From positions 128,001-192,000 of the forward strand of contig CAWKNZ010000009.1 of NCBI GenBank assembly GCA_963851265.1: a stretch of DNA of 64,000 nt, in the 5' to 3' direction. The first letter of the stretch is position 1. Every line of letters begins with the position of its first letter. Shown piece by piece: positions 2,386 through 63,568 of this stretch. The notes below the pieces were generated by a model, which worked only from the letters and a program-made list of their open reading frames with translations, had not been told where the DNA came from and made no database searches. The translations under genes were made by a program, and so were the position numbers. Source of the stretch: an uncultured Gemmatimonadales bacterium. GTDB taxonomy: Bacteria; Gemmatimonadota; Gemmatimonadetes; Gemmatimonadales; Gemmatimonadaceae.

Positions 2386-3990
2386 ATGCCCGCACCCGGT
2401 CTCCCGCGGCGAGTTCTGCCCTCGCACACGGCCGCATGCCTCGCGACCGTCCTGGTGGCCGCCCTGGTGGCCGCACTCGCGCCGACCGTGGCGCGGGCGC
2501 AGGCCGTGCACCCCGCCGTCCGCGCCGCTTCCCCCGCGGCGTCCGGCGTGATCCCCGCGGCGATGGCCGCGATCCGCGAGGCGGACCTCAAGCGCGACCT
2601 CTACGCGCTGGCGAGCGATTCGATGCGCGGGCGCGAGGCCGGCACGCTGGACGAGCTGCGCGCGTCGATGTGGATCGCCGACCAGCTGCGGCGCATCGGG
2701 GTCGCGCCGGCGGCACCCGACGGCAGCTACTTCCAGTGGTGGAACATGCGTCGCACGCGCGTCTCGACCACGGCGAGTCGCGTGCTCGTCGGCGACCGCC
2801 CGCTCGCCATCTGGAGCGAGGTCGCGCCGGGGTCCGCGCTGGCGGCGATGGTGGACGCCCCCACCGTCGTGCTCGCCGACGCGCGCGACAGCACCACGGA
2901 CGTCGCGGGCAAGGTGGTCGTCGCCGACCTCGTGCCGCCGCCCACCGCCGTGCGCCGCGAGGGCACCAACTCGTACGAGTACCGCTACGCCGCGAGCGCG
3001 CTCGCCGCGGCCGGCGCCCGGCTGCAGCGGCGCGGCGCCGCGGCCGTGATCCTCGTGGCCGACTCGGTCGCCGAGCGCGGGTTCGAGGGTGTGGCGGCGA
3101 TCCGGTCGCGCGGCACGTACGACGTCGAGGGCGGGGCGCCGTGGCTCGCGCCGCGTGCGCCTAACGCCGCGACCGTTGCCGCCGCGCCGGTCCCCGTGCT
3201 CCTCGCGCGCCGCGGACTGGCGGACGTGCTCCGCGTCCCCGGGCAGCGCGTGCGGCTCGACCTCCGCCTCGAGCGCTTCGAGGCGCCCTCCGTCAACGTC
3301 GTGGGCACGGTGCGCGGCGCCGACCCGGCACTCCGCGACGAGTACGTGCTCTACAGCTCGCACCAGGACCACGACGGGGTGCGCTACGCGATCAACGGCG
3401 ATTCGGTCTGGGCCGGGGCCGACGACAACGGCTCGGTGAGCGTCGCGCTCCTCGCGATCGCGCGGGCGTTCGTGCGGCAGCCCGGCAGGCGCTCGGTCCT
3501 CTTCGTCTACCACGGCGCCGAGGAACGCGGCCTGCTCGGCTCCCGCTACCACGCGGCCCACCCCGTGGTGCCGCGCGACCGCATCGTCGCCGTGCTCAAC
3601 GGCGACATGATCGGGCGCAACAACCCCGACTCGGCGAGCCTGCTCGGCATCCAGCCGCCGCACCGCAACTCGTCCGACCTCGTCGCCACCGCGCTGCGTG
3701 CGAACGCACTCACGGGCAGGTTCCAACTCGACTCGATCTGGGACCGCCCCACGCACCCGGAAGGCTGGTACTTCCGGAGCGACCACGTGCCGTACGCGCG
3801 GATGAACATCCCGGCGATCGAGTACTCGACCAACCTGCACGCCGATTATCACACGCCGCGCGACAAGCCGTCGGCGATCGACTACGCCAAACTCACCCGG
3901 ATGACGCAGTGGATGTACTTGACCGGCTGGTTCGTCGCGACCGCGCCCACGCGCCCGACCATCGACCCCGGCTTCCGGCTGGAGCGGTGA
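2386..3990 (+). CDS. M28 family metallopeptidase (secreted)
   Basis: SSHQDH, GADDNGS, GAEERGLLGS, LNGDMIG, FRSDH, YHTP. Confidence 0.92.
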   Translation: MPAPGLPRRVLPSHTAACLATVLVAALVAALAPTVARAQAVHPAVRAASPAASGVIPAAMAAIREADLKRDLYALASDSMRGREAGTLDELRASMWIADQLRRIGVAPAAPDGSYFQWWNMRRTRVSTTASRVLVGDRPLAIWSEVAPGSALAAMVDAPTVVLADARDSTTDVAGKVVVADLVPPPTAVRREGTNSYEYRYAASALAAAGARLQRRGAAAVILVADSVAERGFEGVAAIRSRGTYDVEGGAPWLAPRAPNAATVAAAPVPVLLARRGLADVLRVPGQRVRLDLRLERFEAPSVNVVGTVRGADPALRDEYVLYSSHQDHDGVRYAINGDSVWAGADDNGSVSVALLAIARAFVRQPGRRSVLFVYHGAEERGLLGSRYHAAHPVVPRDRIVAVLNGDMIGRNNPDSASLLGIQPPHRNSSDLVATALRANALTGRFQLDSIWDRPTHPEGWYFRSDHVPYARMNIPAIEYSTNLHADYHTPRDKPSAIDYAKLTRMTQWMYLTGWFVATAPTRPTIDPGFRLER

Positions 3991-3995
3991 GCGCC

Positions 3996-5804
3996 ATGCG
4001 ACGCCTGCTCTCGATCGCGCTGCCGTGCGCGGTCGGCGTGTGCGCGGCCGGCACCGCGGCCCGCGCGCAACCTGCGGTCTGGCCCGACGAAGGGCCGCGC
4101 ACGTGGACGCCGCGCCCCACCGCGCCGGCCATCACCGCCAACGACCTGCGCACGCGTCTCTACCAGTTTGCCGACGACTCGATGCAGGGGCGACGCATCG
4201 GCGACGTCGGCAACTTCAAGGGGACCGAGTACGTTGCCCGCGAGTTCCGGCGCCTGGGTCTGCGCCCCGCCGGTGACGGCGGCACGTACTTCCAGGTGCT
4301 CCCGATCGGTCCGGTGGGCGTGGACAGCGCCGCGGCGCGGCTGCTGGTCGCGGGCGCCGCTCTCGCCCCACGCGCCGACTGGATTCCCACCGCGCCGAAC
4401 GCGGCGAACGGCTTCGGCGACGCCGTGGACGTCACCAACGCGCCGGCGGTGTTTGCGGGGCGCTGGGGCGACACGACGGTCGCGCTGGACCCGGCGGTGT
4501 TCCGCGGCAGGGTGGCGGTGTTCCTCGGCGCGGCCGGCACCGCGGGCGCGCGTCGTCCCGCGCTGCCCCGGTGTGATTCGGTGCCGGACAAGTTCGGCGC
4601 CGCGGCAGCCATCGCCGTCGAAACCGCCGACCGCGCACGCGGCGGAGGGATTCGGCGCGTGCGGGTGGTGCGCGACGCGCGGGCGCAGACCGCCGGCGCG
4701 CTCGCTGCGCTCGTCGTGGAGCTCGACGCACTCCCCGAGGCCGCGCTCGACGCCGCGTTCGCCCAGCGCATGACGATGCGCCCCGAAACGCCCGCGCGCG
4801 GGATCGGCGGTGCGACGATTTCGCAGGCCGCGGCGGCGCGCCTGTTCGGCCGGGCGGTCGACGGCCTCGCCGTGGGCACGGTCGGGCAACCGGTGACGGC
4901 ATCGTGGCGCTATACGTGGCGCATGTCGACAACGCCGGCGCGCAACGTCGTCGCCGTCCTTCCGGGCGCGGATCCGGCGCGTGCGGGCGAATACGTCCTC
5001 GTGAGCGCGCACAACGATCACATGGGCGTCAACCCGAGCGCGGTCGACCACGACTCGCTCCGCGCGGTCAACATGGTCACCCGCCCGCAGGGCATCAACG
5101 ACCCCGCCTGCCGCCCCACCGAGGCGCAGCAGCGGCGCATCGACTCGCTCGTCGCGCACGCCCGCAGCATCCGCCCGCCCCGGCGCGACTCCATCATGAA
5201 TGGCGCGGACGACGACGGTTCCGGCACCGTGGTGCTGCTCGAGATCGCCGAACAGTTCGCGGCGGAGCGTCCGGCGCGCTCCATCGTCTTCGTGTCGCAC
5301 ACGGGCGAGGAGGCGGGACTGCTCGGCTCGAAGTGGTTCACCGACCACCCCACGGTCAAGCTCGACTCGGTGGTTGCCGCCCTCAACATGGACATGGTCG
5401 GGAAAGGGCGGGCGGACCAGGTGAAGTTCGGCGGTCCGACCTCACTCCAGACGCTCGGATCTCGCCGCTTATCACGTCAGTTCGGCGACATCATCGACTC
5501 CGTGAACGCCGCGCGACCCGAGCACATGGCGATCGATCGGAGCTGGGACGTGCCCGCCAACCCGATGAACCGTTTCTGCCGCAGCGACCAGGTCAACTAC
5601 GTTCATCATGACGTCCCCGTCACCTACTTCTCGCTCGGCTACGCGGAGGACTACCACCAGGTGACGGACGAGCCGCCGTACATCGACTACGACCACGCGG
5701 CGCGGGTGGGGCGGTTCATTCACGACGTCATGGCCGCGATCGCCGATCGCCGCGACCGGCCGGCGATTTCGGGCGCCGACCCGTCGTACCCGGCCTGCCG
5801 GTGA
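3996..5804 (+). CDS. M28 family metallopeptidase (secreted)
   Basis: Signal peptide; SAHNDH, NGADDDGSG, GEEAGLLGS, LNMDMVG, RSDQ, DYHQ. Confidence 0.92.
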   Translation: MRRLLSIALPCAVGVCAAGTAARAQPAVWPDEGPRTWTPRPTAPAITANDLRTRLYQFADDSMQGRRIGDVGNFKGTEYVAREFRRLGLRPAGDGGTYFQVLPIGPVGVDSAAARLLVAGAALAPRADWIPTAPNAANGFGDAVDVTNAPAVFAGRWGDTTVALDPAVFRGRVAVFLGAAGTAGARRPALPRCDSVPDKFGAAAAIAVETADRARGGGIRRVRVVRDARAQTAGALAALVVELDALPEAALDAAFAQRMTMRPETPARGIGGATISQAAAARLFGRAVDGLAVGTVGQPVTASWRYTWRMSTTPARNVVAVLPGADPARAGEYVLVSAHNDHMGVNPSAVDHDSLRAVNMVTRPQGINDPACRPTEAQQRRIDSLVAHARSIRPPRRDSIMNGADDDGSGTVVLLEIAEQFAAERPARSIVFVSHTGEEAGLLGSKWFTDHPTVKLDSVVAALNMDMVGKGRADQVKFGGPTSLQTLGSRRLSRQFGDIIDSVNAARPEHMAIDRSWDVPANPMNRFCRSDQVNYVHHDVPVTYFSLGYAEDYHQVTDEPPYIDYDHAARVGRFIHDVMAAIADRRDRPAISGADPSYPACR

Positions 5805-5981
5805 GCGGTTTGGGCGAACGCCCCTGATCGGGGAGCAGTCGCCGCCGCCCTGCCCGCGATTTGCTCGCTCGCTGCCGACGTGGACCCGCGCTTGCGCGGA
5901 CGTACCCATCGCTGCACCGCGATTCCCGATCGCGCGACAGGCTTCGCCCACCGTTCGCGACTCCAACGCTCACACCGCGCC

Positions 5982-6932: not shown

Positions 6933-6940
6933 GCGGCCGC

Positions 6941-8494
6941 GTGCGCCTTCTTCGCCGCGCGCTCGCGGCCCTCTGCGGATTGGCCGCGGGCCTACCCGTC
7001 GCCGCCCAGTCCGCACGCGCCCCGCGGGCCACGCGCGAGCCCGCTGCCACCGCGCCGCGCGTCGGACCCGCGCGCGGCGCGGTGGTGGTCGTCGGCGGCG
7101 GGGCGGTCGGCCCCGAGATCCTCACGCGCTTCATCGCCCTGGCCGGCGGCCCCGACGCGCTGATCGTCGACGTGCCGACGGCGGGCGGCGACTCCGTCTA
7201 CCCGGCCGACACGCCCGGGGCGCGGATGCTCCGGGCGGCAGGCGCTCGGCACGTCGTCGTCCTGCACACGGTGAGTCGGGCCGCGGCCGACGCCGACAGC
7301 TTCGTCGCCCCGCTCGCCCGCGCGGGCGGCGTCTGGTTCGACGGCGGCCGGCAGTGGCACCTCGTCGACAGCTACGCGGGCACGCGCACCGAGCGCGGCT
7401 TCCACGACGTGCTCGCGCGCGGCGGCGTGGTGGGCGGCTCGTCGGCGGGCGCGTCCATCCTCTCGAGCTACCTGCTGCGCGGCGCGCGCGCCGGCAACGC
7501 GACCATCATGGCGGCAGGCTACGAGCAGGGCTTCGGCTTTCTGCGCGGCGTGGCCATCGACCAGCACGTCGTCGCCCGCGATCGCCTCCCTGATCTCGCC
7601 GACTCGCTCCGCCCCGCACACCCCGAACTGCTCGGCATCTCGGAGGACGAGGGCACGGCGTGGGTGGTGCGCGGCGATACCGCGGACATCCTCGGGCGGA
7701 GCAAGGCGTTCGTCTACGGCGGCGCCGACCCCACCGACCCCGGCCGGCCGTTCCTCACCCTCTACCCGGGCGACCGGTACGACCTCGGCGCGCGCCACGT
7801 GCTCCGCCGCGCGGGCGAGGGGCTGCCGCTCACGCGCGCGTTCGTCGACTCGCTGTTCGCGCCCGTGGCGGGGGCGGGGCGCGGCGCGGCCACGGTGCTC
7901 GTCGCCGAGGACGGCCGCGTGCTCGCCGACGAGGCGTACGGCGTGCCCGACCAGCCGCGCTACCTCCCGCGCACGACCGCGCCCAACTTTGCGTTAGGCG
8001 GCATCGCCGCGCCGCTCGACTCGCTGGCCTCGCGGCTGGCCGCCCGCGACTCCGCCGCGCGCCCCGACGAGCGACTCGGCAAACGCGCCTACCCGCAATT
8101 CGTGGCGCGACGCGTCTTCACCCCCGTCGGCGCGCACCGCACCACCGTCGACGCCGCCGGGGCGTTCCGGTCCAACGTCGACGAACTGTACCGGCTCTCG
8201 TTCGCCTTCGACCCGCGCGAGACGCCGGCGGCGTTGGGCGGGCCCGCGCCGACGGACGGACCGCCCGACGCCTTGGACGCGTCGGCGTCGGGGTGGCAGG
8301 TCGACCGCGTGGGCGGGCTCACCCGCCTGAGCGCGTTCGCCACGCCCGACGGCCGGCGCGGCGCGTTCGTGCGCATCCCCGACCGGCGCGCGACCATCGT
8401 CATCCTCAGCGATCGCGACGCCGTGGACGCGCGCGGCCTCGCCGAGCGGATCGCCGAGCGCCTGGTCGGGGCGGACCGCCCGCGTCGCGAGTGA
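6941..8494 (+). CDS. Cyanophycinase-like peptidase S51 fused to a degenerate beta-lactamase-like C-terminal region
   Basis: VWFDGGRQ, GGSSAGA nucleophile motif, AIDQH, GISEDEGTA; C-terminal ATVLVAEDGRV...SNVDELYRL...PDRRATIVILS. Confidence 0.8.
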   Translation: MRLLRRALAALCGLAAGLPVAAQSARAPRATREPAATAPRVGPARGAVVVVGGGAVGPEILTRFIALAGGPDALIVDVPTAGGDSVYPADTPGARMLRAAGARHVVVLHTVSRAAADADSFVAPLARAGGVWFDGGRQWHLVDSYAGTRTERGFHDVLARGGVVGGSSAGASILSSYLLRGARAGNATIMAAGYEQGFGFLRGVAIDQHVVARDRLPDLADSLRPAHPELLGISEDEGTAWVVRGDTADILGRSKAFVYGGADPTDPGRPFLTLYPGDRYDLGARHVLRRAGEGLPLTRAFVDSLFAPVAGAGRGAATVLVAEDGRVLADEAYGVPDQPRYLPRTTAPNFALGGIAAPLDSLASRLAARDSAARPDERLGKRAYPQFVARRVFTPVGAHRTTVDAAGAFRSNVDELYRLSFAFDPRETPAALGGPAPTDGPPDALDASASGWQVDRVGGLTRLSAFATPDGRRGAFVRIPDRRATIVILSDRDAVDARGLAERIAERLVGADRPRRE

Positions 8495-8533
8495 TCGGTG
8501 CCGGTGGTCCTCACGCTCCCTCGTCGCGCCCGC

Positions 8534-10588
8534 ATGCGCCGCCTCTCCCTCGCCACGTCCGCGCTCGCGGCCTCCCTCGTCGCGGGCCGTTCCGCGTCCG
8601 CCCGCGTCGTCCGCGTCGTGGTCGACCACCGCGACGACGTCGCGGCCGGCGCGCCCATCGGCGGCGCGCCCGCCTACGAACGCCTCACGGGCCGGGTGTT
8701 CTTCGCCTTCGACCCGCGCAACCCGCACGACCGGCAGATCGTCGACCTCGCGCGCGCGCCGCGCAACGTGCGCGGTGAGGTGGAGGCGTGGGGCGAGTTC
8801 GCGATGCTGCGCCCCAAGGACCCGGCGCGCGCGAGCGGGGTGACGCTGGTCGACGTGGTGAACCGCGGCGGCGTGACGGTGGGCGTGTTCCACCTCGGCG
8901 CCGAGCGCGGGGCGGGGCCGACCGACTCCGCCGCCTTCGGCGATGCGCTCCTCCTCCGTCGCGGCCTCACGGTCGTGATGCTCGGCTGGCAGTGGGACAT
9001 CCTGCCGAACGCGCCCGGCCTGCACTTCTACCCGCCCGTGGCCCGCGACGGCGCGCACCCGATCACGGGGCTCGTGCGGAGCGACGTCACCGTCGACGCG
9101 CCGACGCGCACCATCCCGCTCGGCCACCGCGTCGCGACCTCCGAGGCGCTCGGCTACCCGGTGTCCGACCCCGACGACCCGGCGACGGTGCTCACCGTGC
9201 GCGACGGCCCGCTGGCGCCGCGCACCACCGTGCCGCGGAGCGCGTGGCGCTTTGCGCGCGAGGACAGCGCCGGGGGCGTGATCGCTGACGCACGGCACGT
9301 CTACATGGCGGCCGGCTTCCAGCCGGGGCACGTATACGAGGTCGTCTACCGGGCGAAGGACCCGGTCGTCGTCGGCACCGGGATGGCCGCGGTGCGCGAC
9401 ATGATCGCGTGGCTCAAGCACGACCCCGCCACGCTCGCGCCCACGCGCTGGGGCATCGCGTACGGCGTCTCGCAGACGGGGCGCTTCCTGCGCCACTTCC
9501 TGTACGACGGCTTCAACGTCGACGAACGCGGGCGCCAGGCGTTCGACGGGATCTTCGCGCACACGGCCGGTGCGGGGCGGGGGAGCTTCAACCACCGCTT
9601 CGCCCAGCCCTCGCGCGACGCGCAGCCGTACTCGACGTTCTTCTACCCCACCGACGTCTTCCCCTTCACGAGCCCCGACGAGACCGACCCCGCGACGGGG
9701 CGCACGGGCGGACTGCGCACGCACCGCCCGTCGGGCGCGGGGGCGCCGAAGGTGTTCTACGTCGACGGGGGCTACGAGTACTGGGGACGCGGCGCGTCGC
9801 TCGCGCACACCACCGTGGACGGCCGCCGCGACGTGGGGTTCCTCCCGCTCGAGCGGCGCTACGTGCTGTCGTCGGCGCAGCACTCGGGCCCTGCGGGGTG
9901 GCCGCCACCGCCTAACGCGCGCGTCGGGGACGCGGCGGCGTGGCGCGGCAACCCGATGGACCAGCGGCTCGCCCTCCGCGCGCTCCTCGTCGCGCTCGTG
10001 GACTGGGTGAAGGACGGGCGCGAGCCGCCGGCGTCGCTGTACCCGACGCGCGCGGCCGGAATGCTCGTGCCCGTCGACTCGCTGGTCCGGCCCGCCATCC
10101 CGGGCGTGCGGCTCGCGGCGGTGCCGTACCGGCCGTACCGGCTCGACTTCGGCCCGCGGTGGACGAGCGGGATCATCGACCGCGAGCCGCCGGCGGTGGG
10201 CGCGCCGTTCGCCGTGCTCGTGCCACGCGTCGATTCGTTAGGCAACGACCTCGGCGGCGTGCGGTCCGTGGAGCTCGAGGCGCCCCTCGCCACCTACCTG
10301 CCGTGGCAGCTGCGCGCGCCGTCGCTCGCCGGGAGCGACCGGCTGGTGAGCTTCCAGGGCACGTTCGTGCCGCTCCCGCGCACCGAGGCCGAGCGGGCGC
10401 GCGCGGGCGACCCGCGCCCGAGCATCGAGCGGCTCTACGGCACGCGCGACGCGTACCTCGCGCGCGTGGACGCGGCCGCGCGCGCCCTCGCCGCGCGCCG
10501 GTTCCTGCTCGACGAGGACGTGCCCCGCGCGCGCGCGCGCCTCGCGAGCACGTGGGACTGGATCACCGCGAACGGGGGCACGCGCTGA
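8534..10588 (+). CDS. Secreted alpha/beta-hydrolase-domain protein
   Basis: Signal peptide; VVNRGG, GWQWD, YGVSQTGRFLR (GxSxxG), EYWGRGASL. Confidence 0.8.
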   Translation: MRRLSLATSALAASLVAGRSASARVVRVVVDHRDDVAAGAPIGGAPAYERLTGRVFFAFDPRNPHDRQIVDLARAPRNVRGEVEAWGEFAMLRPKDPARASGVTLVDVVNRGGVTVGVFHLGAERGAGPTDSAAFGDALLLRRGLTVVMLGWQWDILPNAPGLHFYPPVARDGAHPITGLVRSDVTVDAPTRTIPLGHRVATSEALGYPVSDPDDPATVLTVRDGPLAPRTTVPRSAWRFAREDSAGGVIADARHVYMAAGFQPGHVYEVVYRAKDPVVVGTGMAAVRDMIAWLKHDPATLAPTRWGIAYGVSQTGRFLRHFLYDGFNVDERGRQAFDGIFAHTAGAGRGSFNHRFAQPSRDAQPYSTFFYPTDVFPFTSPDETDPATGRTGGLRTHRPSGAGAPKVFYVDGGYEYWGRGASLAHTTVDGRRDVGFLPLERRYVLSSAQHSGPAGWPPPPNARVGDAAAWRGNPMDQRLALRALLVALVDWVKDGREPPASLYPTRAAGMLVPVDSLVRPAIPGVRLAAVPYRPYRLDFGPRWTSGIIDREPPAVGAPFAVLVPRVDSLGNDLGGVRSVELEAPLATYLPWQLRAPSLAGSDRLVSFQGTFVPLPRTEAERARAGDPRPSIERLYGTRDAYLARVDAAARALAARRFLLDEDVPRARARLASTWDWITANGGTR

Positions 10589-10624
10589 CCGGATCGGACC
10601 GCCACCACGGTCAGGCCGTCAGCA

Positions 10625-13257: not shown

Positions 13258-13469
13258 GACGGAGAAAGCTGGCCGCGTCGGCCCCCGCGCGACAGTCGCC
13301 TGGGGCCGGCAACTTCGGGCGCGGGCGCGGCGCGGAGTGTTAGGCTCGTGACACCCCCCGACGCGGCCGCTCGTCGTCGGCACTCGTCGAAGGCGGGCGC
13401 GCCGTCGTAAGTTCCGGGCGGAAACCGGGTGCGCGTGCGCGCGCGGGACGACCCCTGCAGGAGACTCTT

Positions 13470-14384: not shown

Positions 14385-14430
14385 CCGCGGGCGCGGGCCG
14401 GATACGACGTCGACGTCGAGGACCAGTCCA

Positions 14431-15034: not shown

Positions 15035-16102
15035 ATGACCAACGCGGACCCCACTCGGACCCGCATGCGTATGCCGTGGCGGACCACGCTCCCTGTCGCC
15101 GCCGCCGTCTTTCTCGGCCTCGGCGTCCTCTGGGGCCTCCGCGACATCGCGCGCCCGCTCGGCTTCCTCATCCTCGCGATCGCCGTCGCCGAAGCACTCG
15201 CGCCGCTCGTCGCCGCGCTCGAACGGTGGCGCGTGCCGCGCGGCGTCGCCATCAGCGTCGTCTACCTCGGCGTGCTCGTCGCCACCGTCGGCGTCGGCTG
15301 GCTCCTCGTCCCGACGATCATCGCGCAGACCGGCGAGTTCGTGAACCGCCTGCCCGCGCTCGCGTCCTTCGCACGCCGCCTCGCCGCCGAGGGACACGCA
15401 GCCATCGGCGCGCAACTCGACGCGCTCCTCGGCAACCTCGCGCGCCAGGTCGGCGGGTTCCTGCTCGCCGTACCGCTCCAGGCGTTCGACGCCCTGATCA
15501 ACCTCATCCTGCTCGCGTTCCTGTCCGCGTACTGGCTGTTAGGCGAGCCGGCCCTCGTGCGCTTCGTGCTCACGCTCCTGCCCGAGCGCCGGCACGCCGC
15601 GGCGGCCGCGCTGTTCGACGCGATGGGCCGCGCCATGGGCGGCTACGTACGCGGCACCGCGATCAACTCCGTGCTCATCGGCGCCGCCGTCGGCGTGGGG
15701 CTCGCCCTCGCGGGCGTCCGCTACCCGGTCGTCCTCGGCACGCTCACCATGCTCCTCGAGCCGTTCCCCGTCGTCGGACCGTGGCTCGCGGCCGGCCCCG
15801 TCGCCCTCGTCGCGCTCCTCGACTCGCCCGGGAAGGCCCTGCTCGCCCTCGGGGTGTACGGCGTGCTGACGCAGGTCGGCGGTCAGGTCCTCACGCCCAT
15901 CATCATGCGGCGCTCGACCGACATCCCGCAGACGCTCGTCATCTTCGCCATCCTCGCCGGCGCGGCGGTCGGCGGCCTCCTCGGGCTCGTCGTGTCGATC
16001 CCGCTCGTCGCCGCCCTGCGCGTGTTCGTGCTCCGCGTCGTCGTGCCCGTGGTGCGCCGGTGGACGGGGGCCGAGCCGGACGTTCCGTCAGCCGCGGCGT
16101 GA
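15035..16102 (+). CDS. AI-2E family transporter
   Basis: GGAGG SD; multiple TM helices; GGYVRG, PVVGPWL, LTPIIMRRS, GGLLGLVVSIP. Confidence 0.9.
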   Translation: MTNADPTRTRMRMPWRTTLPVAAAVFLGLGVLWGLRDIARPLGFLILAIAVAEALAPLVAALERWRVPRGVAISVVYLGVLVATVGVGWLLVPTIIAQTGEFVNRLPALASFARRLAAEGHAAIGAQLDALLGNLARQVGGFLLAVPLQAFDALINLILLAFLSAYWLLGEPALVRFVLTLLPERRHAAAAALFDAMGRAMGGYVRGTAINSVLIGAAVGVGLALAGVRYPVVLGTLTMLLEPFPVVGPWLAAGPVALVALLDSPGKALLALGVYGVLTQVGGQVLTPIIMRRSTDIPQTLVIFAILAGAAVGGLLGLVVSIPLVAALRVFVLRVVVPVVRRWTGAEPDVPSAAA

Positions 16103-19380: not shown

Positions 19381-21447
19381 ATGCCTCGCGCGGTCGGCTT
19401 CGTGGGGCGCGTTGCGCGACGCGGCCTCGCCCACGTGCGGCAGGGATTCGGGCAGCCCGCGATGGGACCGACGCGAGCCGAGCAGGCGTTCGAGGACCTA
19501 CACCTGGCGCGCGAGGAAGCCGAGAGCACGGCCGCTCGCCTCCGCACGGTCGCGGACGTGGCCGGCGGCGTCATCCGGGCCGACTCCTTGCCCGCCCTGC
19601 ACGCGGTGCTCCGCGACGTCTGCGGTCAGCTGTTCACGTTCGACCGCTTCGCGGTGGTCGCGGGTGAGCCGGTCGGCCCACCCGGCACCCCCGTGCCATT
19701 GCGCGCCCTCGGGGACTCCGATCCGTCCCTGGCCGCTGTCGTCGTCGGCGGGATCACGGTCGCCGGGTGCGGGACCGCGCGGCCCGACTCGTTCTCGACG
19801 AGCGCGTCGTCGGTTCTTGCGGCATCGGACTGCTCGACCCTCGTCAGACCCGTGCTCGGCGACGACGCGGTGCTCGGCTATATCGCCCTGGGCGCCGACC
19901 GACCCGACGCCTTCCGAGTGAGCGACGGCGAGGTGCTCGAAGCGCTTGCCGCGCTGGCGGCCACCGCGATTCGCAACTTGGTGCTCGTCGGCGAGCTGCG
20001 GTACTCGCGCGAGGCGTACGCGCACCAGGCGCTGCACGATCCGCTGACCGGACTTCCCAACCGTGCCGGGCTGCACGAGCACCTCGCGCGGGTGCTGGGC
20101 GGCCCGCACCCGGAGCGCGTGAGCGTGCTCGTCCTCGACCTCGACGGCTTCAAGCGCGTCAACGATTCGTTAGGCCACCCGCAGGGCGACAGCCTGCTGG
20201 TGCAGGTCGCGGAGCGCCTGCTCGACGCCACGCGCGGCAGCGACACGGTCGCGCGACTCGGCGGCGACGAGTTTGCCGTGCTGCTCGAGAACACCCGTGC
20301 GCCGGACGACGCCGTCGCGGTCGCCGAGCGCGTCCTCGGGGCGCTCCGCGCGCCATTCGACCTCGGCGGCGCCGAGGCCATGGTCGGCACGAGCGTGGGT
20401 ATCGCGTTCAGCGGCGCCGCCGAGGCGGACCTTCTGGGCGACGCGACGGCTCTGGGCGACGCCCTGCTGCGCGACGCGGACCTCGCCATGTACCGCGCGA
20501 AAGAATCGGGCAAGGGGCGATACGTAGTCTACGAGCCTCACATGCACGCGGAGGCGGTCAGTCGCCTCGAGCGCGAGGCCGATTTACGCGCGGCGATCGA
20601 GAAGCGCGAATTCCGCCTGTATTACCAGCCGATCGTAGCGCTCGAGACTGGGGCGGCGCTCGGCGTGGAAGCGCTGGTCCGCTGGGAGCACCCGCTTCGT
20701 GGCCTCGTCCCGCCTGCCGAGTTCATCCCGCTCGCCGAGGAGACCGGACTCATCGTGCCGCTCGGCCGTTGGGTCCTGGGCGAGGCGTGCCGCCAGGCGC
20801 GCGTGTGGGCCGACCACGCGTGGGGGACCGACCTCACCGTGACCGTGAACGTGTCGGGCATCCAGCTCTACGACGCCGCGTTCGTCGAGGACGTCCGCCT
20901 GGCACTCGCGGCGAGCGGCGTCACGCCGCAGCGGCTCGTCCTCGAGCTGACCGAAACGGTCATGGTCGACCGACCCGGGCTCGCGCTCGAGCGGTTCAAC
21001 GCACTCAAGGCGCTTGGCGTGCGGCTGGCCATCGACGACTTCGGCACGGGCTATTCGGCACTCAGCTATCTGCGCCAGTTTCCGTTCGACGTCCTCAAGA
21101 TCGACAAGAGCTTCGTGGACGAGGTTGCCACCCGCGGGCAGGCCGCGACGCTCGCGGCGGCGATCGTCGCGCTCGGCAACGCATTCGCCCTGCGCACGGT
21201 GGCGGAGGGCGTCGAGTCGGCCGACCAGGCCACGGCACTCGGCGAGATCGGCTGCGCGATCGCGCAAGGGTACCATTTCAGCCGACCGCTCGCGGCGGAG
21301 GCGGTGACGGCCTGGCTCGCGGCCGAGCGGGTCGCCCCCGCGCCCGACCCACTCGGCGGGGTCACCGAAACGAGGTGGGCGCGGGAGCCCGCGGGCGGGC
21401 GGGCGGCGCCGCTGCGCACCGTGGCGACGCGCGGCGAGCTGCCGTAA
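19381..21447 (+). CDS. GAF-GGDEF-EAL diguanylate cyclase/phosphodiesterase
   Basis: HDPLTGLPNR, DLDGFKRVND, RLGGDEF, VEALVRW, ELTE, IDDFGTGYS, KIDKSFV, AEGVE, QGY. Start may be GTG 19351. Confidence 0.95.
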   Translation: MPRAVGFVGRVARRGLAHVRQGFGQPAMGPTRAEQAFEDLHLAREEAESTAARLRTVADVAGGVIRADSLPALHAVLRDVCGQLFTFDRFAVVAGEPVGPPGTPVPLRALGDSDPSLAAVVVGGITVAGCGTARPDSFSTSASSVLAASDCSTLVRPVLGDDAVLGYIALGADRPDAFRVSDGEVLEALAALAATAIRNLVLVGELRYSREAYAHQALHDPLTGLPNRAGLHEHLARVLGGPHPERVSVLVLDLDGFKRVNDSLGHPQGDSLLVQVAERLLDATRGSDTVARLGGDEFAVLLENTRAPDDAVAVAERVLGALRAPFDLGGAEAMVGTSVGIAFSGAAEADLLGDATALGDALLRDADLAMYRAKESGKGRYVVYEPHMHAEAVSRLEREADLRAAIEKREFRLYYQPIVALETGAALGVEALVRWEHPLRGLVPPAEFIPLAEETGLIVPLGRWVLGEACRQARVWADHAWGTDLTVTVNVSGIQLYDAAFVEDVRLALAASGVTPQRLVLELTETVMVDRPGLALERFNALKALGVRLAIDDFGTGYSALSYLRQFPFDVLKIDKSFVDEVATRGQAATLAAAIVALGNAFALRTVAEGVESADQATALGEIGCAIAQGYHFSRPLAAEAVTAWLAAERVAPAPDPLGGVTETRWAREPAGGRAAPLRTVATRGELP

Positions 21448-21490: not shown

Positions 21491-22975
21491 CTACGCCGAG
21501 TCGGCGCGGCTGCGATCGCGCCCCGTGGGGAAGCGGCGGTCGAGCTCCCCCTTGCCGGTCCGCACCCACGCATCACGCGTCACGCGGACGATCCGCAACG
21601 GGCGCGCGGCGAGTGGGCCTAACAAATCCGGGAGGTCGCCGGCCTCCGGCACCGGCTCCACCTCGCCGGCAGTCGACAGGGCCAGCACCAGCGTCCGCCC
21701 GTCGGGCGACGACAGCAGGACGTCGGTGAGCTGCGGCCAGCGCGCACGCACCGCGCGCTCGACGGAAGCGGCGGGCACGAACCGGCCGTTCTCCAGCTTG
21801 AAGCTGTCTGCCGTGCGCCCCTCGAACGTGTAGGTGCCGTCGAACTCCCGCCTCGCGAGGTCGCCGGTGCGCACCCAGCGCCCGGGTGGCTCGACGCTGA
21901 TCCCGAGACCTCCGGCCGCGTCGGCCTCCCACACGCCGAGGCAGGCGTTCGCGCCGCGAAACGCGAGCACGTCGTCGGCGTCGAGGCGGACCTCACAGCC
22001 GACTGGGTGACCGAGCGCGCCCGCGTGCCACGCTCCCGGATCACCCATCGTGATGCCCGGCGAGGCTTCGGTCTGACCGTACCCCACGCGCAGTCGCGTG
22101 CCGCGGAGCAGATCGGCGAGTGTCGAGTCGACCGGCGCCCCACCGATCACCCCGCCGCGCAGCCGGCCTAACAGCGCGCGGCCCTCGTCGCGTTCGGCGA
22201 GCAGGCGCAAGGTGTACGGCACGGCGTGCAGGTGCGTGATCGGATGCTCGGCCGCCACGGCCAGCATGGCCGCGGCGTCGCGCCCCCCCGAGGGGTCGCG
22301 CAACAGCTCGGCGCCGGCCAGCAGCGCGGGGAGCAACTCGAGCACCAGGCCGAACGCGTGATGCCACGGCAGCACCGAGAGGACCACGGCCCCATCCATG
22401 GCCAGCAGCGGGGTGTGGCTTGCCAACACCGCTCGCACGTTGGCGTCGGAGAGCGCCACGCGCCGCGGGGCCCCAGTCGTACCACTGGTCTCGAGGAGGA
22501 ATCGCGCCTCGCGGGTCGGCCCCGAGCGTGCCGGGCGCGGGATCACGGCAACGTCGGGCGGCGTGCCCGCGCGCTCCGCGGCGACGATCGCGGCAGCCGC
22601 CGGGCGGCCTGGTGCGACCACGGCATAGCGCGCATCGACGAGGTCGAGCAGGGACGCGACGTCGGCGCTGGCCGGCGCGGGCACGAACGTCAGATCGTCC
22701 CAGAGGGCCGCGACGAGCAGCATCGCGAAGCCCGGGCCGGGCGGCAGTGCACACACGACGCGGTCGCCCGGGCCGACGCCGTGCGTCCGCCACCACGCCG
22801 TCCACCGGCGCGCACCGGCCCACAGCGAGGCGGCGGCCACGAGGTCGTCACGCGTCCACAGCAGCGGGAGCGGACGGCCGCGGAGCCGGCGGTAGAGCGC
22901 GTCGCGCCACGACGACTCCGGCGCGGCACGCTCCGGCGCGAAATCCGTGACCGCAGCATCAGGTCGCACGTCCAT
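21491..22975 (-). CDS. pcl: AMP-binding acyl-CoA ligase, probable p-coumarate ligase for the PYP chromophore
   Basis: P-loop TSGTTG, LPWHHAFG, GYGQTE, RTGDL, EGR..D.FK..NG. Substrate inferred from the divergent pyp/tal operon. Confidence 0.8.
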   Translation of the reverse strand: MDVRPDAAVTDFAPERAAPESSWRDALYRRLRGRPLPLLWTRDDLVAAASLWAGARRWTAWWRTHGVGPGDRVVCALPPGPGFAMLLVAALWDDLTFVPAPASADVASLLDLVDARYAVVAPGRPAAAAIVAAERAGTPPDVAVIPRPARSGPTREARFLLETSGTTGAPRRVALSDANVRAVLASHTPLLAMDGAVVLSVLPWHHAFGLVLELLPALLAGAELLRDPSGGRDAAAMLAVAAEHPITHLHAVPYTLRLLAERDEGRALLGRLRGGVIGGAPVDSTLADLLRGTRLRVGYGQTEASPGITMGDPGAWHAGALGHPVGCEVRLDADDVLAFRGANACLGVWEADAAGGLGISVEPPGRWVRTGDLARREFDGTYTFEGRTADSFKLENGRFVPAASVERAVRARWPQLTDVLLSSPDGRTLVLALSTAGEVEPVPEAGDLPDLLGPLAARPLRIVRVTRDAWVRTGKGELDRRFPTGRDRSRADSA

Positions 22976-24318: not shown

Positions 24319-25212
24319 GTGGTAGACACCGTCAGCTACACGCCGCGCTTTGCCTGGGCGATGGTGGCCGCACCGGCCGCCACGGGGAGCGCCGTCGTCG
24401 CAACCAACGGGCCCGTAACCGGCGGGCCCGCGCAGGCGGGGCCGCCGAACGGCGCGGCGCTCGCGGAACTCGCGGCCGGGCTCGAGCGGAGCCGCGAGCG
24501 CGTGGAGACGCTGACCAACAGCGCGACCACGGTACTCTGCCTCACCTCGGTCGTGCACACGCAGCTCGCGGACGTGGGCGCGCGCGCGGCCGACGTGAGC
24601 GGCGCGGCCGCGCGCGTGGCCGAGCAGAGCCGCGCTACGGCCACCGCGGCCGCGGAGATTCGCGCCCTGGTCGATGACGCGCGCGCGGCGGTTGCGGCGC
24701 TGGCCGGTCACGCGCGCGACATCGAGCACGTGAGCACGCGCTTGAACGTGCTCGCCGTCGAGGCGCGCTTCGTCGGACTCAACGCGGCCATCGAGGCGGC
24801 GCGCGCCGGCGACGCGGGCCGAACCTTCGCGGTGGTGGCCGACAAGGTCCGCGAACTCGCCGACGGGGCATCCGACGCCGCGACGCAGATCATCGGCCGC
24901 CTCGGGCGCATCCGCGACGACGCGCTGCAGTCCGCGGCCGTGATGGAGCGCGCCGGCGTGTCGGTCGGCGCGATCGACGCGTTCACCGCCGGCGTGGCCG
25001 ACGCCGCGGCGGCGCAGGAGGCGGGCACCGCCGAGATCACGAGCAGCCTAACGCAGGTGTCGGGCGCGGTCGACGAGATCGTCCGTGCGGTAGAGGACAT
25101 CACCGAAGTCGGCATGGTGCTCGGAGACGGGACCGCCGAGAATCTCGCGCTCGCCGGCGCACTCGGCGCCGGCGCGGCGGCTTCCGATCCCGCGCCAGCG
25201 AGCGACTCGTGA
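24319..25212 (+). CDS. Soluble methyl-accepting chemotaxis protein (signalling domain only)
   Basis: Hairpin tip LNAAIEAARAGDAGRTFAVVADKVRELA; no TM or sensor domain. Start may be ATG 24361. Confidence 0.9.
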   Translation: MVDTVSYTPRFAWAMVAAPAATGSAVVATNGPVTGGPAQAGPPNGAALAELAAGLERSRERVETLTNSATTVLCLTSVVHTQLADVGARAADVSGAAARVAEQSRATATAAAEIRALVDDARAAVAALAGHARDIEHVSTRLNVLAVEARFVGLNAAIEAARAGDAGRTFAVVADKVRELADGASDAATQIIGRLGRIRDDALQSAAVMERAGVSVGAIDAFTAGVADAAAAQEAGTAEITSSLTQVSGAVDEIVRAVEDITEVGMVLGDGTAENLALAGALGAGAAASDPAPASDS

Positions 25213-29121: not shown

Positions 29122-29230
29122 GCGGGTGATCGCGCGCGTGGCGGTGCTCCGCCGCGTGACGCGCAACCCGTCGCGCCGGGGCGTTAGGCGACGCCCCGAC
29201 CGCGGGTACGATCGGACGGCCGCTCGCGGC

Positions 29231-36221: not shown

Positions 36222-37040
36222 CGCGCTGGCCCTCCTGGCGCTCGCGCGCCGACGTGCTCGGCCCTTGCCGCTGCTCGCCCCCGCCGCCGGCGCGCCGACG
36301 GGGACCGAGCGTTCGCCGCGGGGCCGCACGCAGTCTGCTCGCGGGGTCCGGGCGCGTCCATCAGAAGCGCGCGAACCCACACTTCCCGAACACCCGACAC
36401 GGGCCCGGCGGTAGACGTGGCGGCGACGATGGCCGCCGCCGCGCTCTCGGCCTTGCCAATGACCGCGGTGACCGAGGTGGCGCAGATTCATGCCAGTTCG
36501 CGGCGAACTCGTCGTCGGTCATCTCCTCGGCCGCTCTCCGCCCCCCTTTCGCGTACGGCTACTGGCCGACGCACCATCACCCCGCCCTCGCCCGTGGCGC
36601 TCAGGCCGCACACGGTGCAGGAAATCGTCCACGGGCGGGCCCACTCAGCCGTGGACCGGGCCAAGCGCCTCCTGCTGACGACCACAGCTTCGGGCCTCGT
36701 AGCCTCATGGAGCGGGAACGCACGTGGGCCGGCGCCCGCGCGTGGACACCCACGCGAGCTCGTCGTTTGCCGGGTGCTCAGCGCCCGTTTCGATCGCGGT
36801 ATCGGTGCCTAACGGTGAGACGCCGCTCGGATCTCGAACGCTGATGCGATGTTAGTACGCATCTCGTCAGTGTTCGAGCCGTCGCACGACGGCCTGACCC
36901 CCCAGACCCGGCCGCGCCCCACCCCTCGTCGGCGCGCCGGCACCGCCGCGGAATGGGGCGTGCGAACGACCGTCCAGCGTGCACACCCGTCGGCCGACGG
37001 TCGTGCTCGTTCGGGCCCACGTTTCCGGAGCATCTTCGTC

Positions 37041-38045: not shown

Positions 38046-38458
38046 CCGCACCACCGGGCGCGCACGCCGCGACCCACGCGCCGCGACCCACGCGCCGCGT
38101 GCACCGCGCGAGTCGGGCGGTGAAGAGGAGCTCGGCGTGGGGCGTCGCAGGCCAGAACCCGGGCAGCGGCCGTTCCGCAAGTCGCACCCCCCGAGGACGG
38201 CCCGGGGACGCGCGCGTCCGCCCGGCGTGCTCCGTGTGTTAGGCGCTGCCCGCGAACAGGCTCAGCACCCGCCAATGCGGCCCGTGCTCGGAGCCGGCGG
38301 CGGGCCGACCCTGACGCGCACACCCGTCCCTCGCGCGAACGCCGGCGAAGTCGCGCCTGCTGCCGTGACGGGCACGGGCCAGTCCGCGCTTGCGAACCGC
38401 AACGCCGCCGGTATCGTGACGCGGTCGGCGTCATCGGGCCGACCGACGACTCACACGC

Positions 38459-40843: not shown

Positions 40844-41320
40844 CGCGCGGGGAGCGGCACCGGCATCGAACGGCAGGGGCACCCCGCCTGGCACCTGCCG
40901 CCAAACCGCGTCCCGGAACGACGCGTGCGGGCCCCCCAAGCCGACGTCGGCCGATACGGGCGAGTGGCGAACGCCGAATCGGACACCAGCATCGGGCCGA
41001 TTCTGAGACGTTAGGCGGCAGCATACTAGAACGCGTCGCACGAGCCGTCGCACCAGCACGCGTCCCGAAATGCTCGGCGCGTGGGGCGGCGCGACGGCCG
41101 GCGCGGAAACGGCCAAGTTCTCGGTGTCTCAGCCGAGTTGTATCGAGCCGTGCGGGGACACCATTCGTCCAGCGTGATTGGCGGGCTATCCGCCCGGCGA
41201 CCGATGAGAATTGGCGAGGGCGGCGGTCTGTCGGGTTGATTCACGGGCACGCCCCACGCGCCCCACGCGGCGCCCCGCGGCCGCGTGTCTCCGCGCCCAC
41301 CCTTCCGGCTCCGTTCCCAC

Positions 41321-51862: not shown

Positions 51863-52494
51863 CACCGTCTCCTGGGGGTGTGGTGAGTGCGCGGCGTGCG
51901 CACCCACGCTCAGACGGCGACCGACCGGGAAAATCATCGGTGTGACCTCGACCCGTCGCTCGGACACCGGCGCAGGAGGACCCGCGCCGCTTCGCGCCGC
52001 GACGCTCCCGTGCCACGATCGGAAGCGTGAATGAGTGGGTCGGATATGCGATACGGCCGCGTCTCACCTGGGTGCCCCGCCGCAAGGACGCGGTGGTGTC
52101 GCGAGACCCGGCCTCATAATCAGCGACTCAAATCGCTGCCCCGTCACGAGTTCGGAGACGGTCGAGCACCATGCGGCAGCGGCCTTTGCGCGCTCCGGTG
52201 CTGAGAGTTGGCGCGGCTGGCCCGAGTGGGCGCGTGCAAGCGGATGCGATGACACGAAGCCAGTCCGGTGCGAGCCGAACGTACGCCCATGTTCGCGCGA
52301 GTGCCGACAACACGCGCGTGATACGCGCACGGAGGCCCGTTTTCGGAGGGCCGGCCCGATGCAGATCTATTTCCTACGTAAGCAACACCTACAAAGAGAA
52401 GTACGCCTGATACCGCGGCTTGCGACCCCCAGCCTGCTCCCTGGTCGTGCGCACGATGTCGCGGGCGTCGGCGCCGGCGATCGCGACGTACACG

Positions 52495-52944
52495 TTAGGC
52501 GGTGGGCCAGGGCGGGTCGAAGGCGAAGCCGGGCACCAGGGCGGCGAGGCGGACGAAGTCGCGCGCGTTGCGCGTGACCAGTCGGATGCCGTGGGCCCGA
52601 CACGCGAGCGCGAGGTGCACGTCGTTGACGAGCGACTTGCTCATGTCCGCGACCGTCGGGCCGTGCGCGTTCGCGAACCGGCGCATCACGTCCCCCGCCT
52701 CGCCCCACTCCGGGTACCCCGACGCGAACACCCGACCGCGACGCAGGAACGGACCGAGCACCTCGCGTTCGAGCCGGCGCTGCTCGGGCGGCCGGACGCC
52801 GGCCCGGAGTTCCTGGGCCACGACGCCGGACAGATACAGCCACGGCGCGAACGCCTCGCTGAACCCGGCCAGCGCGGCGCGGTGGGCGGGGTCGCGGGCC
52901 GCGTCGACGTAGAGGTTCGTGTCCAGGGTGTACCGGGCGGGCAC
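52495..52944 (-). CDS. vapC: PIN-domain toxin (VapC-like)
   Basis: LDTN, VAQELRAG, NDVHLA, LVTRNARDF. Confidence 0.9.
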   Translation of the reverse strand: MPARYTLDTNLYVDAARDPAHRAALAGFSEAFAPWLYLSGVVAQELRAGVRPPEQRRLEREVLGPFLRRGRVFASGYPEWGEAGDVMRRFANAHGPTVADMSKSLVNDVHLALACRAHGIRLVTRNARDFVRLAALVPGFAFDPPWPTA

Positions 52945-52957
52945 GGGACGCGCCGCG

Positions 52958-53257
52958 TTAGGCGTCCCGATCGAACGCGTCGAAGGTCATCCCGGCGAGC
53001 GCCTCGGCGCCCGTCCTGAGCTCGCGGCCGAACAGGACGTAGTCCAGCGCCGCGTCGAGGGTGGCCGTGTCATTCGGCGTGCCGAGCACGCGACGCGCGG
53101 CGGCCAACCGCGCGGGGTCGAGGCGGAACGCGCGGGGCCCGGCCTTCTTGCCCGGGGCCACGGGCCGTCCGGCCGCGGGCGCGCGGGTCGACGTCCCCGC
53201 GCCTGACGTGGCGGCGCGCGGCGGCCGCGCCGCGGGGTGAGATTCGGATTTCGCCAC
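52958..53257 (-). CDS. VapB-like antitoxin
   Basis: FRLDPARLAAARRVLGTPNDTATLDAALD (RHH-like); 13 nt upstream of vapC. Confidence 0.78.
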   Translation of the reverse strand: MAKSESHPAARPPRAATSGAGTSTRAPAAGRPVAPGKKAGPRAFRLDPARLAAARRVLGTPNDTATLDAALDYVLFGRELRTGAEALAGMTFDAFDRDA

Positions 53258-63152: not shown

Positions 63153-63361
63153 CGCTCGGCCCACGACGGCGCGTCCCCCGGAACGGACCAGACCCCCTCG
63201 GCGGATCCGGTCGGCCGGGGGCACGCCGCGGTTGGATACGGGGCGGTCCCAACGCCAGCGCTCGGGGGCGTCTCGCACCGACCGCATGCGCGTGCCGGAC
63301 CCCGCAGGCGGCGCGACCCGGGCCGCACGGGCGCGCACCGCCCACACCGGCCAGCGAGGGT

Positions 63362-63568
63362 CGTTTTCCGGAATGTTGGAGTTACGTCCGGAAAACGTCG
63401 TGGGAGCCTAACGTGAGACCGGCGTCCCGTCTCCTTACCGTACGACTCCTGCGCGTCTCCGTTGAAGAGTGGGCGTCCTGGCCCGGCGGACGCGTGGTCG
63501 GCATCGCGGCACGTCGTGATGGGCCGGCCGGGCGTGTTAAGTTCGTGGCCTAACACGCCCGACCGGCC
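63362..63568. repeat. Two non-coding inverted repeats
   Basis: CGTTTTCCGGA-N14-TCCGGAAAACG (63362-63397); 20-bp arms, 18/20 matched, with a 7-nt loop (63522-63568). Confidence 0.75.

Follow-up and report, generated by a model that had tools for sequence, protein, structure and literature searches.

To our knowledge, sequence-specific uptake tags, i.e. the uptake signal sequences (USS) and DNA uptake sequences (DUS), have been described in just two families of Proteobacteria, and their origin, spread and purpose are still debated. Among other short recurrent words, HIP1 of the cyanobacteria (GCGATCGC) is hyper-abundant and lineage-specific and overrides codon preference. The core sites of integrons follow the consensus GTTRRRY, with RYYYAAC as inverse core, and each integron cassette, from whatever bacterium, brings two copies of the core. 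Here, we describe a word that is comparable to the uptake tags but occurs in another phylum, among abundant soil bacteria. This word, the heptamer GTTAGGC (GCCTAAC on the opposite strand), recurs throughout a 64-kb stretch of the genome of a bacterium of the Gemmatimonadales (the window; G000:C9:128001-192000, where G000 is the window's genome), and it may be a self tag of the USS or DUS kind.

Uptake sequences have several recorded properties. Perfect copies stand at 1471 versus 764 singly mismatched ones, with a representation of 183-392 versus 2-5, and copies originate by point mutation (both in excerpts of PMC1939737). USS are evenly spaced, in keeping with what uptake drive predicts (parts of PMC1939737 and PMC7811141). 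Moreover, uptake sequences are reported to double tripeptide frequencies (PMC2817400, in part) and are rare in newly acquired DNA (parts of PMC2817400 and PMC7811141).

The window contains 22 exact matches of the heptamer, and all of them fall precisely at the positions listed in an earlier sequence-only reading of this DNA (Table 1). By contrast, 100 dinucleotide-preserving shuffles gave a mean of 2.33 copies (sd 1.36, maximum 6), and none of them reached 22. The chance expectation of about five copies in the sequence-only reading was too high and, therefore, the excess is bigger than had been claimed. With independent gene calls, we arrived at the same tally of contexts, i.e. seven sense copies read as xxG-TTA-GGC, four antisense copies read as G-CCT-AAC, two antisense copies read as GC-CTA-AC, two copies over stop codons read as GCC-TAA-C and seven intergenic copies. 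In a codon-aware null model, synonymous codons were shuffled inside each gene, using 500 shuffles for the window genes and 20 for the whole genome. The window genes contain 13 copies, while this null gave 0.99 ± 0.94 (maximum 5). The null retains the rare codons that the word itself carries and is, therefore, conservative.

G000 (4.60 Mb in 12 contigs, 73% GC, 94% complete) carries 1762 copies in total (885 + 877 in the two orientations), corresponding to 0.38/kb, with 0.33-0.55/kb on each of the 12 contigs. Genes were called with a custom codon log-odds caller, which is crude and gave 3683 genes and 89% coding sequence in G000. These genes contain 1293 copies versus 72.9 ± 6.7 under the codon-aware null (maximum 86), so that the proposed enrichment holds genome-wide and is 18-fold. 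The spacers (0.51 Mb) contain 281 copies versus 2-56 for variants of equal A+T content. In a maximal-order Markov model, TTAGG is the most deviant 5-mer of G000, and 1762 of its 1925 occurrences lie inside the heptamer. As the sequence-only reading had noticed in the window, TTA is otherwise scarce: of the 1309 in-frame TTA codons, 987 are part of the word, and GGC comes next after 996. TTA-GGC ranks third among the spellings of Leu-Gly in G000, and a gene for tRNA-Leu(UAA) is present. Finally, the word is equally abundant in four more assemblies of the same genus and in other genera. It is, thus, not an assembly artefact, which was one of the outcomes that had been named as fatal to the observation.

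The word is exact. Of its 21 one-letter variants, 19 occur at 0.12-0.99 of the codon-aware null, the exceptions being GTTGGGC (2.46) and GTTCGGC (1.40). The excess of GTTGGGC was considered as a product of decay of the word; this is ambiguous, as the use of TTG before Gly codons, relative to TTG use in general, is 1.25-1.47 in G000 and the congener G001 but 0.51 in G012 and 0.98 in G006. The flanking positions are also biased, with C (79%) or T (14%) at position -1 and G (54%), A (22%), C (19%) or T (5%) at position +7 in G000. These preferences are near-identical across the spacers and every coding frame, with C in 73-86% at position -1 and T in 3-5% at position +7. We conclude that the fuller word is C or T, GTTAGGC and then G, A or C, i.e. 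that it extends by one position on each side.

In genes, 1012 copies are in sense and 281 in antisense orientation. This sense excess vanishes when occupancy is calculated per reachable context because the opportunities differ. Occupancy was 9.1% for X-Leu-Gly (987/10868), with 14-21% where X can end in CG, 13.9% for antisense X-Pro-Asn (204/1465), 4.0% for Leu-Thr preceded by S, G, R or C (77/1908), 0.7% for Val-Arg-x (25/3541) and 14.4% for Ala-stop read as GCC-TAA-C (123/856), and it was flat along the length of the genes. The word includes 123 of the 432 TAA stop codons and 82 of the 737 TAG stop codons; genes ending in alanine amount to 856 of the 3683 gene calls (23%). A translation or codon-pair signal was rejected, as the word occupies antisense frames, stop codons and spacers just as it does sense frames. 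Context occupancy, the null model and the flanks support the proposal of a signal in the DNA itself that prevails over codon bias on either strand. In total, we conclude that the exact word is read as double-stranded DNA whatever the strand, frame or coding status, and that all cheaply reachable contexts are filled to a comparable extent (~4-14%).

A link to replication was assessed over 1 Mb of contig C2 around a terminus-like switch. There, the orientation agrees with the leading strand for 218 of the 319 copies, following gene orientation. Per opportunity, the leading strand had 178/1878 and the lagging strand 57/745, i.e. a 1.24-fold difference without statistical significance. For a replichore signal of the FtsK-orienting polar sequence (KOPS) or Chi type, and for the replichore skew that had been envisaged, no effect beyond gene orientation was seen in this 1 Mb of one contig. 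A dif-like site with AT-rich arms and a 6-bp centre lies at the switch of gene orientation and GC skew, with a match to a Xer-type recombinase nearby (Table 1). A Xer/dif half-site was rejected as an explanation of the word because the arms of the dif-like site differ from it.

To follow the turnover of the copies, we aligned 247 kb of G001 to G000 (81% identity). In this alignment, 53 copies are shared in position, 41 are present in G000 alone and 117 in G001 alone. At the unshared positions, the partner genome mostly has GTTGGGC, GCTCGGC, GCTGGGC or GTTCGGC, which are mostly alternative spellings of Leu-Gly. Retention of G000 copies in G001 was 56% versus 21-43% for 11 control heptamers. Comparison of the window with its orthologs gave three sites kept in congeners (3159, 9910 and 10237) and one that is not kept (15538); at five further sites, only the orthologs have the word, and the window has GCTCGGC (at three of them), GATCGGC and GCCTCAC. 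In total, we conclude that copies arise in place by point changes, mostly synonymous, at existing Leu-Gly, Pro-Asn, Leu-Thr and Ala-stop positions as well as in spacers, and that they persist longer than comparable words yet turn over between congeners.

We then compared the spacing of the copies with random occupancy of 12333 Leu-Gly and Pro-Asn opportunities, using class-specific probabilities and 1000 simulations. Occupied neighbours at a distance of up to 200 bp numbered 9 versus 67.9 ± 8.6 expected and those at up to 500 bp 79 versus 159 ± 13.5, and in neither case was any of the 1000 simulations as low; up to 1 kb, there were 249 versus 287 ± 19. Heterogeneity from gene to gene would push this test in the opposite direction. 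We conclude that one copy lowers the odds of another within ~0.5 kb. Because the copies interfere, a site-autonomous mutation or repair bias is disfavoured and, moreover, the beneficiary would be a DNA segment of several hundred bases and not the site.

The word also affects proteins where it is dense. Leu-Gly is written TTA-GGC in 0.1% of cases in the word-poor genome G006 and in 7.8%, 13% and 19.6% in G000, G001 and G012, respectively; for Pro-Asn written CCT-AAC, the values are 0.6% in G006 and 11.1%, 17.4% and 47.3% in G000, G001 and G012. The Pro-Asn dipeptide itself occurs at 1.86 times its expectation in G012 versus 1.17-1.23 times in G000, G001 and G006, and the word thus reshapes proteins at high density. 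At the other extreme, the longest word-free stretch of G000 covers 45 kb, compared with a mean gap of 2.6 kb, and contains the origin-proximal housekeeping genes mnmG/gidA, parA, parB and mnmE. Identity of G000 to its congeners is 77-78% inside this desert versus 83-85% in its flanks, suggesting that the desert may be a replaced or unusually diverged segment. An origin-proximal desert as a conserved feature was rejected, as there is none in G001, G004, G145, G159 and G212.

To map the word across the order, CGTTAGGC was counted as the pattern and the reversed word as the control in 213 genomes, i.e. the union of 31 relatives and 201 order members that are at least 85% complete. Genomes with a word count of at least twice the control were scored as word-rich; the unpublished genomes G011, G084 and G204 were used solely as word-poor rows. 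Word-rich genomes number 26 of the 213 and belong to three families. In the window's family, they comprise all five genomes of the window's genus together with genera g5, g9, g14, g15, g32, g35, g39, g41, g42, g44, g45 and g47; in the second family, they comprise g22 and g51; and in the third, g76. In the remaining genomes, the word is rarer than the reversed control. The densities reach 1.3-1.4/kb in G012 and G119, and genus g9 has 6360 copies (1.25/kb). Moreover, close relatives differ: in g42, three genomes have 3479-4141 copies versus 66 in G147; in g22, 345 and 195 stand against 8; in g51, 561 and 177 against 11; and in g76, 1061 and 726 against 337 and 181, with the latter two below their own controls. 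Given such a patchy pattern, whatever reads the word would be acquired and lost frequently. The word and its flanks are alike in seven word-rich genomes of the three families (G000 and samples of G159, G212, G040, G119, G012 and G001), and the sole deviation among them is that the last position is somewhat less strict in G012. Finally, the cultured strain Gemmatirosa kalamazoonensis KBS708 has 39 copies in 40.8 kb of plasmid 1, a megaplasmid (0.96/kb).

The heptamer matches the integron core consensus exactly, as the sequence-only reading had pointed out. In word-poor relatives, its few matches cluster in integron cassette arrays with a period of 500-680 bp, in which each unit ends in an element of 90-136 nt that starts with GCCTAAC and finishes with GTTAGGC. 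The bottom strand of these elements folds as attC, i.e. with an R box, an unpaired spacer, a bulged L box and a variable loop (z -3 to -12). One array adjoins intI (G021:C80), and attC sites ending in the word occur in G021, G019 and G000. Of the 70 attC ends, 67 have C or T at position -1, while position +7 is G in 39, A in 16, C in 12 and T in 3, which is near the flanks of the lone copies; in these counts, each attC was entered on both strands and sites were picked by the exact word. Integrons have been recorded in Gemmatimonadota (PMC8618304, in part). Concerning the arrangement of the copies, the sequence-only reading was right that they do not form attC sites: among the 1762 copies, there are nine inverse-core/core pairs at 66-149 nt, about four of which fold like attC, and ~99% of the copies are lone, having no inverse partner, fold or adjacent integrase. 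Perfect hairpins are formed by a few copies that lie as inverted pairs, e.g. at C2:11211 and C2:116118.

G000 has integron features of its own. Its intI is in two pieces that lie 2.1 kb apart on one strand, and the insert encodes a large serine recombinase (Resolvase, Recombinase, Zn_ribbon_recom). At one contig end, there is a cassette array with toxin-antitoxin-type genes (DUF5615/PIN_10 with DUF433, BrnT, and DUF4926 with DUF6883), at least three attC sites and two IS110-family transposase genes with identical scores (Table 1).

Across the order, integrons are near-universal, with IntI over cut-off in 18/31 and 17/22 genomes of both word states. IntI over cut-off was not found in the word-rich genomes G001, G002, G008, G012, G018, G083, G167 and G207 and is present in the word-poor genomes G005-G007, G009, G010, G014, G019, G020, G024-G026, G028, G029, G046, G055 and G147. 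On a tree of 44 IntI proteins, in which G061 (1.7 times its control) was scored as rich, the word-rich label needs 12 changes compared with 14.5 after shuffling of the labels (58 of 500 shuffles were as low), and no IntI clade goes with the word. IntI was, thus, rejected as the determinant, and co-occurrence of the word with an integrase, which had been proposed as a lead, is not seen. The likeness to integrons had been treated as a formal coincidence; in fact, genuine attC sites of relatives and of G000 have this heptamer, with similar flanks, at both of their ends, even though neither the presence nor the clade of IntI tracks the trait. From the identity with attC, we suspect some connection of the reader, or of its specificity, with the biology of integrons.

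One alternative explanation lies in integrons themselves, i.e. that the integron integrase, or a tyrosine recombinase related to it, would use the lone copies as half-sites (R boxes), with functions in cassette docking or insertion, as raw material for attC sites or in another chromosomal role. Many integron cassettes end in GCC-TAA-C, as do 123 genes of G000, and this agrees with the idea, as do the shared inverse-core/core pair, the agreement of the flanks and the near-universality of integrons in the order. We nevertheless consider it unlikely: the trait follows neither IntI nor its clades, the intI of G000 is itself interrupted, and the lone copies have neither partner nor fold. Moreover, integrase-driven chromosomal insertion requires only GWT (bioRxiv 10.1101/2022.09.11.507474, in part), so that thousands of good genic sites would be a hazard. 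A chromosomal service site, i.e. a binding or nicking site for a DNA-maintenance or nucleoid protein that acts over ~1 kb, such as a strand-discrimination nickase in mismatch repair or a loader, with one copy per segment being enough, would agree with exact and strand-blind recognition, with interference at short range combined with near-Poisson spacing at long range, with the presence of copies on every contig of G000 as well as on the KBS708 megaplasmid, and with copies outlasting control words. This is also improbable in our view, as no candidate protein was found, no methylation mark for strand discrimination was found, an essential housekeeping role fits poorly with on/off switching within genera, and the 45-kb stretch of origin-proximal housekeeping genes in G000 is wholly free of the word.

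The chances of the two remaining explanations are far smaller. A Chi-like signal, i.e. a recombination hotspot or self-recognition signal for RecBCD, AddAB or AdnAB in double-strand break repair, would suit a 7-8-mer that occurs about once per 2.6 kb and points mainly with the leading strand on C2, and G000 does have one AddAB-like operon with a PDDEXK_1 domain. However, the skew follows gene orientation, and RecC (PF04257) was not found in the six word-rich genomes searched (G000, G001, G003, G004, G008 and G012). In G004, G008 and G012 (92-97% complete), searches for the PDDEXK_1 nuclease domain had no hit, and the matches in G001 and G003 were weak, so that an AddAB-type nuclease was not found in three of the five others. 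Moreover, the AddB of G000 has no match at E<=1e-20 in any other genome of its genus and, therefore, the operon looks like an accessory acquisition. The Chi-like explanation is, thus, very unlikely and close to refuted. We give even less credence to a process driven by methylation or repair, of the HIP1 or very-short-patch type, in which a methyltransferase with a mismatch endonuclease, or another site-autonomous bias, would convert near-cognates. The patchy distribution, which is like that of mobile elements, resembles that of restriction-modification genes, and GTTGGGC, the variant enriched 2.46-fold, is one transition away from the word. On the other hand, a site-autonomous process does not predict interference between neighbours, and the word is not a palindrome, which is where the likeness to HIP1 fails. 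G000 has no match to the methyltransferase families PF00145 and PF01555, i.e. no C5 or N4/N6 family besides PF02384, which is present only at two Type-I-like loci in low-GC contig ends. In these ends (61-69% GC), the methylase matches are split over several frames. Finally, the single-molecule real-time (SMRT) methylome of KBS708 includes only RGATCY, ATGCAC and CCAGN7TCA (PMC3974934) and not the word, which plasmid 1 carries at 0.96/kb, although SMRT covers 5-methylcytosine (m5C) poorly.

Among the mechanisms listed in the sequence-only reading, an uptake-sequence-like element fits best, while the Chi-like and methylation-driven ones are disfavoured and the HIP1-like one fails. We, therefore, tentatively suggest, with a probability of roughly 0.4, that GTTAGGC is a lineage-specific genomic self tag that is similar to USS and DUS and would be maintained by drive at the level of DNA segments. 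This suggestion is made because the exactness, strand-blindness, origin in place, short-range evenness, effect on the proteome, absence from a diverged segment and filling of the cheapest frames match uptake sequences. Segments would be rewarded most simply if homologous DNA were acquired with a bias for sequence: a receptor at the surface or in the periplasm might favour fragments with the word, recombination would then spread the word-bearing alleles by molecular drive, and this drive would be balanced by mutation and by the cost of a rare codon. Uptake-type genes are present in G000 (PilM, three ComEA-like proteins, ComEC and DprA).

Several observations weigh against a self tag. Such uptake-type genes occur in many non-competent bacteria, as control rows indicated, and PilM is present in 40 of the 41 panel genomes, word-rich and word-poor alike, and is not discriminating; presence of type IV pili was rejected as a discriminator for this reason. 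A literature search found no competence or DNA-uptake experiment for the phylum. The gaps between copies are near-Poisson overall (mean 2592 bp, coefficient of variation 1.07), i.e. the evenness is short-range only. The word is shorter (7-9 bp) than the known uptake sequences. Moreover, those are family-wide and have dialects, whereas this word is patchy, switches on and off within genera and is abundant in only 26 of the 213 genomes. In 400 kb of the word-poor G006, there is no alternative hyper-abundant 7- or 8-mer and, therefore, no family of dialects is seen. Finally, identity with the attC core, flanks included, is not predicted by an uptake function.

A further idea is that the word is the recognition sequence of a novel, horizontally mobile system for self-recognition or DNA acquisition, the specificity of which would have been borrowed from, or have co-evolved with, the attC core. 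Lineages that gain the reader would fill their chromosomes within genus-level time, and lineages that lose it would let the word decay. We regard this as a rather long shot. If it were true, a step of import, or of other discrimination, that prefers CGTTAGGC would favour own DNA as well as foreign cassettes, thereby coupling the specificity of transformation to cassette capture.

Other observations concern the window and its genome. The GC content of the window is 71-76% (in 4-kb windows), and the best named relative of one of its proteins is from a "Gemmatimonadales bacterium" metagenome-assembled genome (71% identity). In public sequencing runs, parts of the window were found in short metagenome contigs only and in no RNA data, and aligning these contigs gave no information on the sites. 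Positions 1-20000 of the window are not syntenic with congeners, as counterparts with 72-89% identity are dispersed on different contigs of G001, G003 and G004; the density of the word in the non-syntenic window equals the genome average. A PIN-domain gene and a small gene upstream of it likely form a toxin-antitoxin pair, and a GCC-TAA-C copy of the word lies at the end of each. In G000, a second family of 7-mers, consisting of A, a GC-rich pentamer and T, is over-represented in the maximal-order Markov model (AGCGCCT, 2075 versus 1040 expected; AAGCGCT, 635 versus 234), and AGCGCCT also heads the list in the word-poor G006.

Table 1. Copies of the heptamer in the window (window positions) and further loci of the window and of G000 (contig:positions).
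Feature	Position	Strand	Location	Reading	Remark
Copy	3159..3165	-	antisense, peptidase M28 gene 2386-3990 (+)	G-CCT-AAC (Pro-Asn)	kept in G003 ortholog
Copy	7993..7999	+	sense, gene 6941-8494 (+)	xxG-TTA-GGC (Leu-Gly)	
Copy	9910..9916	-	antisense, gene 8498-10588 (+)	G-CCT-AAC	kept in G001 ortholog
Copy	10237..10243	+	sense, gene 8498-10588 (+)	G-TTA-GGC	kept in G001 ortholog
Copy	13339..13345	+	intergenic, between 12001-13257 (-) and 13470-14384 (+)		
Copy	15538..15544	+	sense, AI-2E transporter gene 15035-16102 (+)	G-TTA-GGC	G001 ortholog: C-CTC-GGC
Copy	20169..20175	+	sense, GGDEF/EAL gene 19351-21447 (+)	G-TTA-GGC	
Copy	21617..21623	-	sense, AMP-binding enzyme gene 21491-22975 (-)	G-TTA-GGC	
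Copy	22166..22172	-	sense, AMP-binding enzyme gene 21491-22975 (-)	G-TTA-GGC	
Copy	25046..25052	-	antisense, MCP-domain gene 24319-25212 (+)	GC-CTA-AC	
Copy	26065..26071	-	antisense, aromatic amino acid lyase gene 25209-26888 (+)	GC-CTA-AC	
Copy	29183..29189	+	intergenic (29121-29231)		
Copy	29945..29951	+	antisense, peptidase M28 gene 29231-30730 (-)	G-CCT-AAC	
Copy	30284..30290	+	antisense, peptidase M28 gene 29231-30730 (-)	G-CCT-AAC	
Copy	36807..36813	-	intergenic (36221-37041)		
Copy	38238..38244	+	intergenic (38045-38459)		
Copy	39061..39067	+	sense, DPP IV/S9 peptidase gene 38459-40843 (+)	G-TTA-GGC	
Copy	41010..41016	+	intergenic (40843-41321)		
Copy	52494..52500	+	over stop codon of PIN-domain gene 52495-52944 (-)	GCC-TAA-C	
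Copy	52957..52963	+	over stop codon of small gene 52958-53161 (-)	GCC-TAA-C	
Copy	63406..63412	-	intergenic, after 62490-63152 (+)		
Copy	63548..63554	-	intergenic		
RES-domain gene	33375-33983		window		
Likely toxin-antitoxin pair	52495-53161		window		
attC site	C6:1592-1708		G000		beside intI
attC site	C10:194558-194654		G000		
attC site	C10:202950-203046		G000		
attC site	C10:203674-203792		G000		
Split intI	C6:3005-6044		G000		
Cassette array	C10:~193000-215025		G000, contig end		
AddAB-like operon	C3:244574-251686		G000		
Type-I-like locus	C7:767831-772495		G000, contig end		
Type-I-like locus	C9:923-1858		G000, contig end		
dif-like site	C2:1368945-1368975		G000		
Xer-type recombinase match	C2:1346667-1347503		G000		
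Word-free stretch	C1:182877-227962		G000		

Literature searches of limited scope, which covered the word itself, Gemmatimonadetes competence, integrons and attC, and Gemmatirosa motifs, found no published description of the GTTAGGC word; among the hits listed for the word itself, there were only primers and unrelated matches, and the main text of PMC4670013 does not contain it. The new points are the identity with attC together with the negative tests of this link, the interference statistic, the on/off map of the order, the negative searches for Chi readers and the methylome check. Because the word switches on and off between close relatives, the gene for its reader can be found by genome comparison, and a cultured and sequenced strain, KBS708, carries the word on the replicon segment read. 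Owing to the identity with the integron core, a connection of DNA acquisition with the capture of gene cassettes can be proposed and tested. Even if the uptake function were wrong, there would still be a sharp, strand-blind 8-bp recognition system that rewrites three quarters of the TTA codons and shifts dipeptides in the densest genomes.

Compared with known systems, the word shares with Chi that it is a short, asymmetric and over-represented sequence with a raw leading-strand excess (218/319); by contrast, most word-rich genomes gave no hit to the known readers of Chi, and the excess appears to follow from gene orientation. It shares with HIP1 that it is an exact, lineage-specific and hyper-abundant word that overrides codon preference and differs in being non-palindromic and in that neither a cognate methyltransferase nor methylation was found, with m5C poorly covered. 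With the attC and attI sites of integrons, it shares an identical sequence, similar flanks and real attC sites with this pair of ends in relatives and in G000; it differs in that nearly all copies are lone and do not fold, and in that the trait is independent of IntI. Compared with DUS and USS, the Gemmatimonadota word uses the rarest Leu codon of its genome instead of preferred codons and equals the integron core. In other respects, the resemblance to DUS and USS is close. Both are exact short words that occur at 0.4-1.4/kb in both orientations and are placed in tolerant coding frames, spacers and gene ends; in both, perfect copies far exceed one-letter variants, copies originate in place by point mutation and the short-range spacing is fairly even; and both distort the proteome where they are dense and are rare in diverged or new segments.

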